Positions 24,207-28,732 of a stretch of DNA of 64,000 nucleotides are shown piece after piece. Both the position numbers and the translations under genes were made by a program. Source of the DNA: a bacterium (lineage in GTDB: Bacteria > UBA8248); the NCBI GenBank assembly GCA_965202625.1, contig CBDBBI010000010.1, positions 672,001 through 736,000 on the forward strand, written 5' to 3'. The notes beneath the pieces were generated by a model. That model did no database searches. It was not told the origin of the DNA and worked only from the letters and a program-made list of their open reading frames with translations. Positions within the stretch are counted from its first letter, which is position 1. Each line of letters starts with the position of its first letter.

Positions 24207-24593
24207 CTACCCGAGGACGGCCACAGCTTGTATTTCGACCATCATTTCCGGCCTGGCGAAACCCGCCACCGTAATGAGAGCGCTGGCGGGATATCCATCC
24301 GCAAAATACGCCTTGCGTAACTCGACGAACTTATCCCCGTGTCTTGCGTCAAGGACGAATACCGTCATCGTCACAATATCCCCTAGCGTCCCACCCGCCC
24401 TTTTTAAAATTCTCTCAATCCGGCGAAACGAGGCGCGCACCTGGGCTTCAAAGTCGCCCGCCAGGACATTTTCCCCTTCATCACGCCACACCCCCACGCC
24501 AGCTAACCATATCTGCTCGCCCCCTTTCGTCTTTACAGCGGGGGAGAACGAGCGTTCCTCCTGCCAGGCGCCCCGAAAGTATTCACGTGTCAT
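24207..24593 (-). CDS. Rid (RidA/YjgF) family protein
   Basis: FSPAV, FEAQV, YPASAL, MMVEIQAVA; ATG 24593 with GAGGAG RBS. Confidence 0.88.
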   Translation of the reverse strand: MTREYFRGAWQEERSFSPAVKTKGGEQIWLAGVGVWRDEGENVLAGDFEAQVRASFRRIERILKRAGGTLGDIVTMTVFVLDARHGDKFVELRKAYFADGYPASALITVAGFARPEMMVEIQAVAVLG

Positions 24594-25821
24594 TTGGCAC
24601 TCTCCTCTGATGGTCGTCCTCCTCCTTCTTCTTTCCGCCCAATCGCGCCGACGCCAAGACGGCCAGCCAACCCATGATCGCGAAACAGAAATAGCTCGCA
24701 TCCAGCCCCATTCGCTCGGCAACCCACCCGCCAAGAAGCGGTGCGAGAAAACTCAAGCCATGACAAGAGTAAATAAAACCAACGGATGAGGTCAAAATGT
24801 CGTTTGCCGAGAAATCGACCGCTGCGGTGAGAATGATCGGGCTTACGAAACCGACGACGCCAGTCAAAGCTGCCAGAAGAAGCAAGCCTGTTCGCCATTC
24901 TATGAATGGTGTGACGAAAACAAAGGACCCCAGCAGCAATAGGGGCCAGAACAAGGCGGCGCGTGCACCCCAGCGGTCATACAGAATTCCCATAAGGGGC
25001 TTGGACAGCATCCCGAACCCGAAATGAAGCGATACAGCCACTCCAATCTGCGCCGTGCTCATCCCCAATTTCGATGTCGCCAAGAGAGGAAGGAAGCCTA
25101 TCATGCCCTTGATGCACATGCTCCTTAGCGTATAGGTTACCGCCAGCCATACCGTGTTCTTGTTCGCAACGACCCGTCGGACGATGATGCCAATTCCCAA
25201 ATCCGGGTTTTTCCCTCTCCTGTCTCGTTTTGGACGCTTCTTTTCACCAAAACGAACTCCCACCAACGGCAAAAGAAGGACCGCGAGCGCAGCGCAGGCG
25301 GCGAGTGCGGCGCGCCAACCCGCCATGGCCGCTATGCCCGCCTGCACCAGTGGGATAACGCTGGTGCCTGCGTTGCCACCCAGGCTGTGCCATGAGATGG
25401 CGAACGCGCGGTCGCGCTCGAAACGGCGGGCCGTCAGCGCTGTTCCACAAGGATGATAGACTGAATTTCCCGCCCCGGCGAAAAACGACAAGACGCCGAG
25501 TGCCCAAAAGCGGCTCGCCCAGATCATGGCGATGAAAGACACTGCGGAAACGCTCATACCCACCAGCAAAATTTGTTTTCTTCTGCCCGTGTTGTCCGCC
25601 AATATGGAGAGGGGATATTGAAAAATCATCGCGCCTAGACTAACGGAGCTAAGCAGGGCGCCCGCTTCAAAGGGCGATAGGTTCATGTCTGCAATGATGA
25701 GCGCAAGAACCGGCACCAGCATGTTGCTGAACCCATCACTCAATCCATGGGTCATGCCAATCAGGCTCAAATCAAAATAATCGCCGAGCCCCCAGCGAGG
25801 TTTTCGCTCGTGACGGGTCAT
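24583..25821 (-). CDS. MFS transporter (Fsr-like)
   Basis: THGLSD, LADNTGRR, VYHP, LYDRWG; ATGA overlap with upstream peptidase. Confidence 0.9.
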   Translation of the reverse strand: MTRHERKPRWGLGDYFDLSLIGMTHGLSDGFSNMLVPVLALIIADMNLSPFEAGALLSSVSLGAMIFQYPLSILADNTGRRKQILLVGMSVSAVSFIAMIWASRFWALGVLSFFAGAGNSVYHPCGTALTARRFERDRAFAISWHSLGGNAGTSVIPLVQAGIAAMAGWRAALAACAALAVLLLPLVGVRFGEKKRPKRDRRGKNPDLGIGIIVRRVVANKNTVWLAVTYTLRSMCIKGMIGFLPLLATSKLGMSTAQIGVAVSLHFGFGMLSKPLMGILYDRWGARAALFWPLLLLGSFVFVTPFIEWRTGLLLLAALTGVVGFVSPIILTAAVDFSANDILTSSVGFIYSCHGLSFLAPLLGGWVAERMGLDASYFCFAIMGWLAVLASARLGGKKKEEDDHQRRVPNDT

Positions 25822-26798
25822 GGCGATGAAGGTATATCTCGCCAGGCGGGTACGACTCCCCTGCCGTCGGCCAACATGACCGCGCGGCAAATCGCATGGC
25901 CGGTGGCAGCCATCGCGGCTGCGCCGAGAACGTCGAGCGACTCCTCGCGCTCCCCGTGGGAGAGGGCGAATACCATGTCGCCATCTACCGTCGTATAGCA
26001 AGGGCGAACCACGCGAATGAGCCCATTCGCCGCCAACTGGGCGAGCTTGTGCGTTTGCGGTTTCGTCAACTTAGCGTCCGTCGCCACGACAACCAGCGTC
26101 GTGTTCGCAGAAACGCCCGAGAACCCCTCGAACGGCCTCCCCCGGATACGCAAATACGCTTCGGTATCCACCAAGCCCCGCTCGGGCGGCACTGCCCTAG
26201 GTCCCGCTATGAGGTTGCCCGTCGCCGGGTCATGCACGCCCCCGAAGGCGTTTACCACGGCGACTGCCCCCACCACACCGCCTTTAGGCAGCTCCACGCT
26301 CGCCGTTCCAAAACCTCCCTTCATGGCGCGATCAAGCCCCAGCAATTTCCCGACGGTCGCCCCTGCACCCGCTCCTACACTCCCCTGTGGGCCTTCAGTG
26401 TCCAAAGCCGCCTCGCACGCGGCGCGTCCCATCACGGCGTCCGGACGCACCCGCCCGTCCCCGAAATGCAAATCGAACAGAACGCCGGCAGCCACCGTGG
26501 GTACGCGAAAACGTCCGGCGAAAAACCCCCTGCCCTTCTCCTCCAAGAAAGACATGACGCCATCGGCCGCGGCGAGACCGAACGCGCTTCCCCCCGTCAG
26601 AACGATCGCATCCACGTTACCCACGAGGTGTTCCGAGCGAAGAGCGTCCAACCCGCGCGAGGCCGTCGCCGTGCCGCGCAACTCGCATGCGCCAACGGTT
26701 CCCGGGGGGCAAAACACCACGGAAACACCCGTCCCGGCTTGCTCATCCTGCGCGTGTCCCAAGCGAAAACCCGAGACGTCCGTGATACAGCCTTTCAT
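25818..26798 (-). CDS. P1/S58 (DmpA-like) peptidase
   Basis: ITDVSGFRLGH, LTGGSAFGL, GAGAGA, KGGFG, VNAFG, NTTL, DGD. Confidence 0.92.
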   Translation of the reverse strand: MKGCITDVSGFRLGHAQDEQAGTGVSVVFCPPGTVGACELRGTATASRGLDALRSEHLVGNVDAIVLTGGSAFGLAAADGVMSFLEEKGRGFFAGRFRVPTVAAGVLFDLHFGDGRVRPDAVMGRAACEAALDTEGPQGSVGAGAGATVGKLLGLDRAMKGGFGTASVELPKGGVVGAVAVVNAFGGVHDPATGNLIAGPRAVPPERGLVDTEAYLRIRGRPFEGFSGVSANTTLVVVATDAKLTKPQTHKLAQLAANGLIRVVRPCYTTVDGDMVFALSHGEREESLDVLGAAAMAATGHAICRAVMLADGRGVVPAWRDIPSSP

Positions 26799-26858: not shown

Positions 26859-27527
26859 TCAATCCGGCATGGTGGGTTCGGCATACGCCCGGCCAGGAAG
26901 TTCGCCGGTCTCCAGAACACTGTTGATGACGCGTCGATATTGTTCAACCGGTACTGCGCCCACGAGAACCGCCCTGTCATTCACCACGACGGACGGGATG
27001 CCCGTGATGCCCATGGTCGTGGCCTCGGCGTATTCCTTGAGTGCTTTTTGCCTCAAACCCCCGCTTTCGAGGGCGTCGTGGAATCTATCCATGTCCAGGC
27101 CGCTTTCCTTCGCCACGTCGTGGACGACTTCCTTGTCCGAGATATTGCGGTTTTCAGTGAAAAAAGCGACCAACAAATTGTCATGAAACCTGTCCCACGC
27201 CTCCGCTCCCTGGAATCTCGCGGCGAGGCCGGCTTCCGCCGAGGGCATGGAGCAGTTCGGAAATTCCTCCTCGTTATTCTCCCACATCGTGAAGTCTCCG
27301 GAATCCAGATGGGCGTTCGCGTTTCTCCAGTTGTTTTTGCGATAATCGTTGAACACCGTCGACGGGTCGGGCGCGGGTCTGAGCATGAAAACCCGATACT
27401 GAATGTCCACCTTCTCCCTATATTCCTCCTTGATCTTCTTCAGACGCACGGCCGAATTGAAGCACCAAGGTCACAAAAAATCGCTGTACACCGTGAAGCG
27501 CACAGGCGCGTTGGCGTTATTATTCAT
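26859..27527 (-). CDS. DsbA/FrnE-like thiol-disulfide oxidoreductase, selenoprotein (UxxC)
   Basis: ATG 27527 with AAGGAG RBS; MNNNANAPVRFTVYSDFL-TGA(27471-27473)-PWC continues in frame to GITGIPS and GAVP; downstream hairpin. Confidence 0.88.
27427..27470 (-). promoter_or_regulatory. Candidate bacterial SECIS element
   Basis: Immediately 3' of UGA: CCUUGGU/AUCAAGG lower stem, CUUCA/UGAAG upper stem, apical GGC-CGUGC-GUC. Confidence 0.65.
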
Positions 27528-27951
27528 CTCGTCTCTCCTTTGCCTCCGCCATCAACTGGAATGCCTCTGTTCCAAGAGCTCGGATTCTGGGATAAGGCAG
27601 TAAAAAGCGTGGACGCCAAAGTTCTCGCCTTCATCGCTTGGCGCCGATCTCGCCCAGGGACGCGCTTCCCCTCCCTCTTCGATTCTTGTTCCCTCCACTT
27701 GATGGTCGCACCCTTAGAAATGCTTCGTCAACGTGTACAAATCCTCTCACTTCAAACGATGCGACGTTGCTTGAGCGCACACCACCTGAGCGGGGCTCTT
27801 TGCGAGGTCTCCCAGAAGGAGGTGGGAAAGATCATATCCTGCTGGATTGACGCACCGAGCGAGGGGACGCCCAGGCCGGTCGCTCTCAGAAGGGCGGAGG
27901 TGTTGGGAGAGGTGCGCTGGATGGCGCGGAGTTTTTGAGGGAGGAGGTGGC

Positions 27952-28503
27952 ATGGGACGGACGACGAACGGGTTGCTCGCCATCGTTATGATGCTGACTC
28001 TCATCTCCGGGTGCGCGGCCAGGCGCGCGCTTACGCGGGCGCAATATATGACAATGGTGAGCAGAACGTATGAAGGCGTGAAGCCGAAAGAGGCCATCGC
28101 GGCGGCCGAGAAACTGTTAAGACTCGCGGACGAGGAGGACATCACCTTTCAGCATTCCGAGCAAGGCTTCCGGGCACACAGGGCGTGGCTCCTGTACTTC
28201 GTGCTCGCCGCGGCCACCGGCACGGATATCTGGACTGTGACCGCCGCGCCGGTTGAGGGAGGAGCAAAGGTCACCATGTATCTTCACCGGGTGGGCGGCG
28301 GCATCATTCCCAGCGGAGTGTTTCCGGCCGATACGATGGCCATCTACGACCTGTTCTGGGGGCGCATGGATTATTTGCTCGGCCGGCGTGATAGATGGAT
28401 GACCTGCGAGGAAGCGCAATCCCGCGTGAATCAAGGGATCACGTTTGGCTCCCTGGAGTATCTGTGCCTGTTCACGGACGACAAAAAGCCGGAAGGAAAG
28501 TGA
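27952..28503 (+). CDS. Lipoprotein of unknown function
   Basis: GGAGG RBS; MGRTTNGLLAIVMMLTLISG-C lipobox; two further Cys near the C-terminus. Confidence 0.8.
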   Translation: MGRTTNGLLAIVMMLTLISGCAARRALTRAQYMTMVSRTYEGVKPKEAIAAAEKLLRLADEEDITFQHSEQGFRAHRAWLLYFVLAAATGTDIWTVTAAPVEGGAKVTMYLHRVGGGIIPSGVFPADTMAIYDLFWGRMDYLLGRRDRWMTCEEAQSRVNQGITFGSLEYLCLFTDDKKPEGK

Positions 28504-28732
28504 CTGTAAATGGAAGGGGAATCCATGAAAAGATGGATGACGTTTGTTTGCGCGCGCGGGTGAGGTGCGCTGCCATTACGACGGAAGCGGCCAATCGATG
28601 AGTATGGCTATGATGTTCTTGTTCTTGCTTTTCTCCCCGCCAGGTCGCGCCCAGCGACACCTGGCGCGGCCTCGTGGTCGCCCTCCTCATATCCAGGGGC
28701 ATCCCCTCATGAAACGGGTTTGGCGGGAGGAC

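Follow-up and report, generated by a model that had tools for sequence, protein, structure and literature searches.

A probable selenocysteine form of the FrnE/DsbA-like oxidoreductases in a bacterium of the UBA8248 lineage, truncated in public gene calls

A gene on the minus strand of contig CBDBBI010000010.1 from a bacterium of the UBA8248 lineage (positions 26859..27527 of the 64,000-nucleotide stretch analysed here, referred to below as the window) is, to judge from sequence comparison, very probably a real selenoprotein gene, encoding a cytoplasmic FrnE/DsbA-like thiol-disulfide oxidoreductase in which the nucleophilic cysteine is replaced by selenocysteine (Sec, U) in the motif U19-P-W-C22. 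Codon 19, a UGA, is conserved as a sense position of the reading frame, and the genome encodes the full machinery for Sec insertion. The family to which the gene belongs has been known since 2005; the gene is a further member of it, and its description is chiefly an annotation correction.

A preliminary description of this DNA had noted that the 196-amino-acid open reading frame (ORF) in a program-made list (26859..27449, minus strand, start codon GTG) lacks an active site, and that 26 further in-frame codons, beginning at an ATG at 27527-27525 behind an AAGGAG, restore the sequence SDFL-U-PWC with the UGA as residue 19 of 222. A second reading of the sequence agrees exactly: the AAGGAG occupies positions 27540-27535 of the minus strand, separated from the ATG by a 7-nt spacer. 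Translated with TGA as U, the product has 222 residues and reads MNNNANAPVRFTVYSDFL-U-PWCF..., with codon 19 (27473-27471) as the single internal TGA; the terminator at 26861-26859 is likewise TGA. The parts of the gene, all on the minus strand, are as follows, with the basis of each assignment in brackets.

26859..27527: full coding sequence of the putative Sec-containing FrnE/DsbA-like oxidoreductase, 222 codons plus the TGA stop at 26861-26859 (translation with TGA read as U, PF01323, AlphaFold2 model)
27535..27540: Shine-Dalgarno-like AAGGAG (direct reading of the sequence)
27525..27527: true start codon ATG (sequence; orthologs start 13-18 codons ahead of the TGA)
27471..27473: TGA, putative Sec codon 19, at the nucleophilic position of U-P-W-C (ortholog column, Cys in homologs, independent contigs)
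27462..27464: TGC, Cys22, predicted resolving residue of U-P-W-C (invariant in 29 orthologs and in a 12-sequence homolog alignment)
27447..27449: GTG, Val27, wrongly taken as the start of the 196-amino-acid call and situated in the apical loop of the core hairpin discussed below (ORF list, public calls)
26994..26996: codon for Pro178, in a G-I-P loop (I177 and P178 invariant in 29 orthologs) which, from general knowledge of the thioredoxin fold, we take to be its cis-Pro loop

The Pfam family DSBA (PF01323) matches residues 13-201 of the full-length product at positions 4-190 of its 191-position profile, with 81.4 bits against a gathering cut-off of 25.6, and the N-terminal extension therefore supplies the start of the domain. 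Gene callers had been expected to truncate such a gene, and they do: the public calls are truncated in all 32 clusters (136-197 amino acids, at most 88% of the query), those fetched begin V/M-R-L-K, and where they are named it is as 'DsbA family protein' in bins labelled Tectomicrobia or Nitrospinota. No NCBIfam model reaches its own cut-off, the nearest being NF041057 (Rcas_1661 family thioredoxin-like (seleno)lipoprotein), with 54.6 of the required 190 bits and over residues 93-203 only. The main value of the finding thus lies in annotation, as the public calls inspected for this lineage leave an inactive-looking fragment of 186-197 residues and no NCBIfam model covers the gene; because of these two circumstances, redox inventories of these bacteria miss a selenoenzyme.

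Conservation of the in-frame UGA and the Sec pathway

A six-frame search of 60 relatives and the source genome itself gave matches in 49 of the 61 genomes. Each of the 45 rows with at least 43% identity, from 43 genomes, contains an in-frame TGA (one in 43 rows, two in the other 2); these genomes include 36 of 36 from the same family, one from the same order and five from the same class, while in three further genomes of the same class or order (G038-G040) the six-frame search with this query found no ortholog. Among 44 orthologous loci inspected directly, down to about 43% identity, the TGA stands in the identical column in every one, so the codon is not private to the strain, a case that the preliminary description, in combination with an absence of Sec machinery, had named as fatal to its proposal. 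Around the codon, members of the family have FTVYSDFL-U-PWCFNSAVRL, and class-level orthologs have YHDYC-U-PWCYNSAVRL. Among the 30 loci nearest to the query, variation in codons -11 to -1 before the TGA is almost confined to third positions, and the codons downstream behave alike; the stretch upstream of the TGA is therefore translated in this frame.

The homologs of other lineages supply the residue that the UGA replaces. An exhaustive HMMER search returned 8708 relatives, in which truncated forms begin at query residue 27-28 and full-length forms at residue 7. All 11 full-length homologs that were fetched (33-40% identity) carry Cys in the U19 column, in the context SDxLCPWC, which bears out the Cys/UGA pairing that had been proposed, as does the FrnE protein of known structure in the PDB. 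The rule published for recognising bacterial selenoproteins, as worded in the available text of PMC1088965, asks that two or more homologs have Cys and that the TGA/Cys pair be conserved; here Cys in 11 of 11 homologs and in FrnE stands opposite TGA in 44 of 44 loci.

The TGA itself does not depend on a single assembly. A DNA contig from another study (X5, covering 27298-27586) and one assembled from a metatranscriptome library (X7, covering 27358-27534) each span both the TGA and the ATG with 0 differences, so independent data agree on TGA rather than TGC or TGT, as the proposal required. In a second RNA run (X8) the TGA lies outside the contig cover, and gaps in such cover are uninformative. 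It tells against the selenoprotein interpretation that contigs from RNA libraries cannot prove transcription, transcript ends or read-through.

The proposal had also implied that selA, selB, selC and selD lie elsewhere in the genome, and a profile search of the genome (3.09 Mb in 10 contigs) located them, all above curated cut-offs: selA at 565.5 bits, an adjoining selB at 361.4 bits, selD at 332.6 bits, with an in-frame TGA of its own, and tRNA-Sec at 75.8 bits. Within the window there is no gene of the Sec machinery, and the sole tRNA there is a tRNA-Gly. A scan of the genome for read-through frames of the type UxxC or CxxU gave 381 frames, mostly noise, from which 20 were picked by hand. 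In 16 of these 20 a redox Pfam domain extends across the TGA, namely DSBA (2), Thioredoxin, AhpC/TSA (3), Glutaredoxin (2), ArsC, DUF3179, CMD (3), UGSC, GRDB and Rdx; the other 4 have no Pfam match at 1e-5, and three of them resemble CMD-type frames by eye only. Counting the gene described here, at least three DsbA-like Sec genes are thus present, and the gene adds to the picture of a genome rich in selenoproteins. Three Nitrospinota-labelled bins are among the top ten selenoproteomes of BSepDB, with 48-54 selenoprotein genes each, according to the available text of PMC13326102.

Several alternatives to Sec insertion have to be weighed against these data. One is that the UGA is decoded partly or mainly as Cys or another residue, for instance under selenium limitation, and the homologs do have Cys in this column; the genome, however, retains a complete Sec pathway, and despite deep divergence all 44 of 44 loci have TGA rather than TGC or TGT, a retention that points to selection for Sec itself, and we regard such decoding as very unlikely. 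We consider it very unlikely that the cell makes the annotated 196-amino-acid protein from GTG 27449 instead, with the 26 upstream codons forming a leader or a small upstream ORF that ends at the UGA. All public calls (32 of 32 clusters) have this form and a GGGAG lies just upstream of the GTG, but the resulting protein would lack all of U-P-W-C as well as strand β1 and the initial turns of helix 1. The upstream codons vary at third positions only, and their product corresponds by homology to the N-terminal part of Cys-form proteins, which are single polypeptides. D16, U19, P20, W21 and C22 are invariant.

A pseudogene, a nonsense mutation or a sequencing error, for which an in-frame stop would be the typical sign in a single genome, is refuted for practical purposes by the sequences compared: 43 further loci and contigs from two separate studies show the identical TGA, purifying selection is evident on both sides of it, and the probability left to this explanation is negligible. 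No more credible is a genome-wide reassignment of TGA, as in codes 4 or 25, for which nothing specific to this gene speaks; the Sec gene itself terminates with TGA, the in-frame TGAs checked are at catalytic Cys positions of redox families, and a dedicated tRNA-Sec and SelB are present. Insertion of Sec at codon 19 is the explanation that we retain.

Some further observations concern the orthologs and the other Sec genes. The class-level orthologs L053-L057 read C-U-P-W-C, with an additional Cys directly ahead of the Sec, and a paralogous subgroup (L066-L068, from genomes G041, G045 and G042; 29-32% identity) reads H-U-A-W-C. Elsewhere in the source genome, L071 (G000:C10:124657-125412, minus strand) has the context YSDYT-U-PFC, a PF01323 match of 92 bits and a strong hairpin with a GUG loop at +22..+24, and L070 (G000:C10:144412-145074, plus strand) has the reverse motif C-Y-V-U and a PF01323 match of 63 bits. 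In the selD gene (L010, G000:C10:1611050-1612009, minus strand) the TGA stands in the context KAGG-U-GSKL and is followed by a hairpin of -26.4 kcal/mol, more stable than any other in the set. In-frame TGAs also occur in a frame of the UGSC family (L086, G000:C10:2035819-2036460; PF24696, 175 bits) and in a GRDB-like frame (L087, G000:C10:2151840-2152739; PF07355); the raw scan holds two or three more look-alike copies of each, by resemblance only. A Grx-DinB read-through frame was seen among the hand-picked set. The long multi-stretch matches of a representative search were set aside as irrelevant to the Sec question: they are ordinary tandem Cys-type DsbA proteins (P0035, P0123 and many more), 430-1196 amino acids long, with 2-5 domains (EFSDFECPFC) joined by Pro/Ala-rich linkers.

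The stem-loop following the UGA

In bacteria, as is well established, a hairpin of the mRNA immediately 3' of the UGA, the Sec insertion sequence (SECIS), brings SelB and its Sec-tRNA(Sec) to the codon, and the same would be expected here. In the fdhF-type SECIS of E. coli the stem-loop lies directly 3' of the UGA, and SelB binds its apical part, with a loop G/U and a bulged U. Three overlapping elements, all on the minus strand, have to be distinguished in the present gene.

27428..27470: extended hairpin of the preliminary description, comprising outer stem, lower stem and core (forms here; outer stem not conserved)
27439..27456: conserved core hairpin, candidate SelB-binding part of a SECIS (ortholog folds, column pairing, synonymous constraint)
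27435..27455: codons +6 to +12 counted from the TGA, where the gene has its lowest synonymous diversity (codon diversity)

The preliminary description had proposed a SECIS-like two-stem hairpin, and such a hairpin does form from the 43 nt after the UGA in the minimum free energy (MFE) fold of the window RNA, at -15.3 kcal/mol. Few synonymous recodings of the peptide reach this stability (15 of 1000 and 3 of 300). Across the comparison set of 44 orthologs (40 distinct sequences), however, its outer stem CCUUGGU/AUCAAGG is not kept: 71.8% of cells are paired and covariation lies below the shuffle mean, for which reasons the full two-stem hairpin was rejected as a conserved SECIS. The part that is conserved is the small inner core, which has 6-7 bp in the stems UUC/GAA and GGC/G(C/U)C with a bulged U and recurs in the single-sequence folds of most orthologs. 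On fixed columns 86.7% of the core cells are paired, a value reached by 0 of 500 shuffles. A continuous 7-bp register of the core was tried and discarded, as its 80.7% pairing is no better than that of shuffles (245 of 500) and the bulged-U register fits better. The apical loop, approximately GUGC (27449-27446), begins 21 nt after the UGA (+22..+25).

Codon usage points to the same place. Over codons +6 to +12 the synonymous diversity is 0.204, compared with a gene mean of 0.438 (153 informative codon columns), and is the lowest of all 7-codon windows; this constraint is the strongest signal for the hairpin, and it coincides with the core. The position of the apical loop also agrees with other Sec genes of the same genome, in which a small G-containing loop occurs at +17 to +27: by a post hoc criterion of loop position, 11 of 18 such genes pass, compared with 114 of 3000 random sites.

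A number of observations weigh against a SECIS at this position. The energy of the extended hairpin is ordinary by comparison with dinucleotide shuffles (z -0.43; 63 of 200 as stable), and the core is weak within the genus, at -3.6 to -4.3 kcal/mol, with about 25% of synonymous recodings as stable. Tested against recodings, p is 0.05 or less in 8 of 40 orthologs for the core, mostly distant ones, and in 5 of 40 for the 45-nt stretch. Covariation is thin, with one double-change pair (21-31, GC to AU) in 3 related sequences, and the conservation of the loop 'GU' is not independent evidence since it is fixed by the codon for Val27. The loop-position criterion was devised after seeing the data; it is passed by only 19 of 40 orthologs in 55-nt context and failed by the gene of the window itself, whose MFE fold is affected by a C-U mismatch in the core that stems from a private CGC-to-CGU change. 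An Rfam scan of 27300-27600 gave no match at E <= 10. With such mixed results, fold energy was discarded as evidence that could carry the claim of a SECIS.

On balance the hairpin is probably a SECIS, and the likeliest recruiting element would be the small conserved stem-loop with its apical GUGC 21 nt after the UGA, here lengthened by the outer stem. The fdhF-type SECIS shares with it the location directly after the UGA, a small GU-containing apical loop about 21 nt downstream and a bulged U, but in the present gene the bulge lies in the 3' strand, the core is a weak one of only 6-7 bp, and no curated RNA family matches. The available text of PMC1088965 describes the bacterial SECIS as a stable stem-loop immediately downstream of the UGA whose small apical loop includes a G.

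Two groups of relatives show variants of this region. In L053-L057 the core is stronger than in the genus of the window, at -5.9 to -8.1 kcal/mol, with 7-29 of 300 recodings as stable. In L066-L068 a stem GCGACC/GGUUGC with a GGGC loop, of unrelated sequence, can be drawn by eye at the same distance from the UGA; the computed MFE fold prefers a different hairpin nearer the UGA. On the other side of the Sec codon, directly before it and inside the coding sequence, lies a terminator-like hairpin of 9 pairs followed by a U-run (27484-27505, minus strand). The U-run corresponds to the codons GAU UUU UUG and is lost in orthologs that have GAC, UUC or CUC, and the hairpin is therefore probably incidental.

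Fold, predicted chemistry and known relatives

The closest solved structure by sequence is FrnE of Deinococcus radiodurans (DR_0659; PDB 5cnw and related entries), matched over residues 8-195 with an E-value of 8e-14 and with U19 opposite the first active-site Cys. An AlphaFold2 model based on an alignment of 29 orthologs (mean predicted local distance difference test score, pLDDT, 88.3; predicted template modelling score, pTM, 0.83) places U19 between strand 9-15 (β1) and helix 20-39, the classical position in the thioredoxin fold. When the model was compared with the PDB by Foldseek, the top group consisted of 3kzq, YjbH, FrnE, SCO1869 and 2in3, with template modelling (TM) scores of 0.72-0.79, and kappa glutathione transferases and periplasmic DsbA ranked below it. 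Among the 29 orthologs no variation occurs at D16, U19, P20, W21, C22 or in the I177-P178 loop. The only Cys residues in the chain are C22 and a non-conserved C92, with no Cys after residue 92. The product is predicted to be cytoplasmic, as had been proposed: the model starts β1 at residue 9, the 18 residues preceding the Sec codon are polar, and the ortholog N-termini consist of 13-18 polar residues ahead of it, which leaves no space for a signal peptide.

If the enzyme works as FrnE and other UxxC enzymes do, U19, placed at the N-terminus of helix 20-39, would attack substrate disulfides through its selenolate; Cys22 would then resolve the mixed selenenylsulfide, leaving an intramolecular Se-S bond that could be re-reduced by a thioredoxin- or thiol-based system. 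The FrnE of D. radiodurans is described, in the available text of PMC8945050, as a cytoplasmic disulfide reductase/isomerase of the DsbA family that reduces insulin and 5,5'-dithiobis(2-nitrobenzoic acid) (DTNB) and isomerises disulfides; the same text assigns the FrnE subfamily to cd03024 and reports a C-terminal CxxxxC tail in many members, though not in all, since it is missing in the FrnE proteins of D. maricopensis and S. roseofulvus. D. radiodurans FrnE is the best sequence match of the present protein in the PDB and matches it in fold with a TM score of about 0.75; the two share a CP(W/F)C-type motif and the lack of a signal peptide. It differs in that Sec replaces the first Cys, in an identity of about 21% in the structural alignment, and in having no CxxxxC tail, with no conserved C-terminal Cys in the 29 orthologs; the active site would therefore be regenerated by a route other than that of D. 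radiodurans FrnE. Periplasmic DsbA, whose motif is CPHC (E. coli; PDB 1bed and others), resembles the product in its thioredoxin fold, into which a helical segment is inserted, and in having a CxxC-type motif where helix 1 begins (TM 0.53-0.59), but the present protein has no signal peptide, carries an xPWC motif and is nearer in both sequence and fold to the cytoplasmic FrnE and YjbH types.

A selenoprotein family of matching description is on record. Among the 15 families introduced from Sargasso Sea data, the available text of Zhang, Fomenko and Gladyshev (2005, PMC1088965) includes a 'DsbA-like protein' (COG2761, UxxC, nine sequences) with predicted SECIS elements. A 'DsbA-like protein' selenoprotein was later found in genomes of Anaeromyxobacter, Desulfovibrio and Desulfotomaculum (Zhang et al. 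2006, PMC1794560, available text), and the accessible part of a 2026 review has an entry for a DsbA-like 'form 1, PF01323, UxxC' (PMC13188914). The features in common are PF01323, Sec as the first residue of UxxC, a majority of Cys forms among the homologs and a predicted stem-loop after the UGA with a small G-containing apical loop. We take COG2761 to be the FrnE-type COG. In the available text of PMC1088965, PMC1794560 and PMC13188914 the lineage studied here is not named for this family, and the comparison with published members is one of description, not of sequence; the terms 'Nitrospin', 'Tectomicrobia' and 'FrnE' have 0 occurrences each in the 2026 review. Within the accessible portions of the literature found, nothing concerns this gene or the pairing with a peptidase described below, and supplements may list such genes.

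Neighbouring genes and the S58 peptidase

Downstream of the Sec gene, and in the same direction, follow genes for Peptidase_S58, MFS_1, Rid/L-PSP and an ABC ATPase, while a radical-SAM/UPF0004 gene lies about 1.2 kb upstream. The run of peptidase, MFS transporter and Rid protein had been read from the translations and is borne out by the Pfam matches to Peptidase_S58, MFS_1 and Ribonuc_L-PSP.

25818..26798, minus strand: Peptidase_S58 (DmpA-type), partner of the Sec gene, 60 nt downstream of it (PF03576, 140.6 bits)
24583..26001, minus strand: MFS transporter, MFS_1 (Pfam)
24207..24734, minus strand: Rid/L-PSP protein, Ribonuc_L-PSP (Pfam)

In 30 loci at family level the S58 gene is next in 30, the MFS gene is present in 29 and the radical-SAM gene in 29. 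In 8 further Sec-form loci, 5 of them at class level, the S58 gene is again next in all 8, and the MFS gene occurs in 2, the Rid gene in 1 and the radical-SAM gene in 3; linkage to these last three genes holds at family level only and was rejected as a general feature. All 38 of the 38 Sec-form loci, which reach down to 42% identity, thus have the S58 gene directly after the Sec gene; of 80 loci in other phyla that encode Cys-form homologs (34-42% identity; within 3 kb on either side, some of these stretches being ended by contig edges), 0 have it. By these comparisons the pair of Sec gene and S58 gene is clade-specific.

It is conceivable, though rather unlikely, that Sec-FrnE and the DmpA-type S58 peptidase form a dedicated two-enzyme module confined to the Sec-form clade. 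In such a module the selenoenzyme might open a disulfide-bridged peptide which the peptidase then degrades, or it might keep the peptidase or its substrate reduced. The pairing could equally be explained as inherited synteny within one clade. No function or fixed S58 neighbour for a DsbA-like selenoprotein is stated in the accessible parts of the literature found; the module, if true, would be the first physiological context for a selenoprotein of this type, and the strict linkage is a small lead on its function and the sole contextual clue to a substrate.

As listed by the program, the ORFs of the S58 and MFS genes overlap by 184 nt (25818-26001) and those of the MFS and Rid genes by 152 nt (24583-24734), all on the minus strand. 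Since the matches to Pfam start only at residue 86 in the MFS ORF and at residue 60 in the Rid ORF, the true starts are probably later than the listed TTG codons. Upstream of the Sec gene, a promoter scan gave no promoter-like site on the minus strand near it, and a 132-amino-acid ORF at 27747-28145, which has no Pfam family and occurs in 1 of 30 loci, was treated as spurious. The gap of about 1.2 kb between the start of the Sec gene and the radical-SAM gene (27528-28732) has a counterpart of about 0.95 kb in the orthologous loci, and in the window it contains an ORF on the plus strand at 27847..28503.

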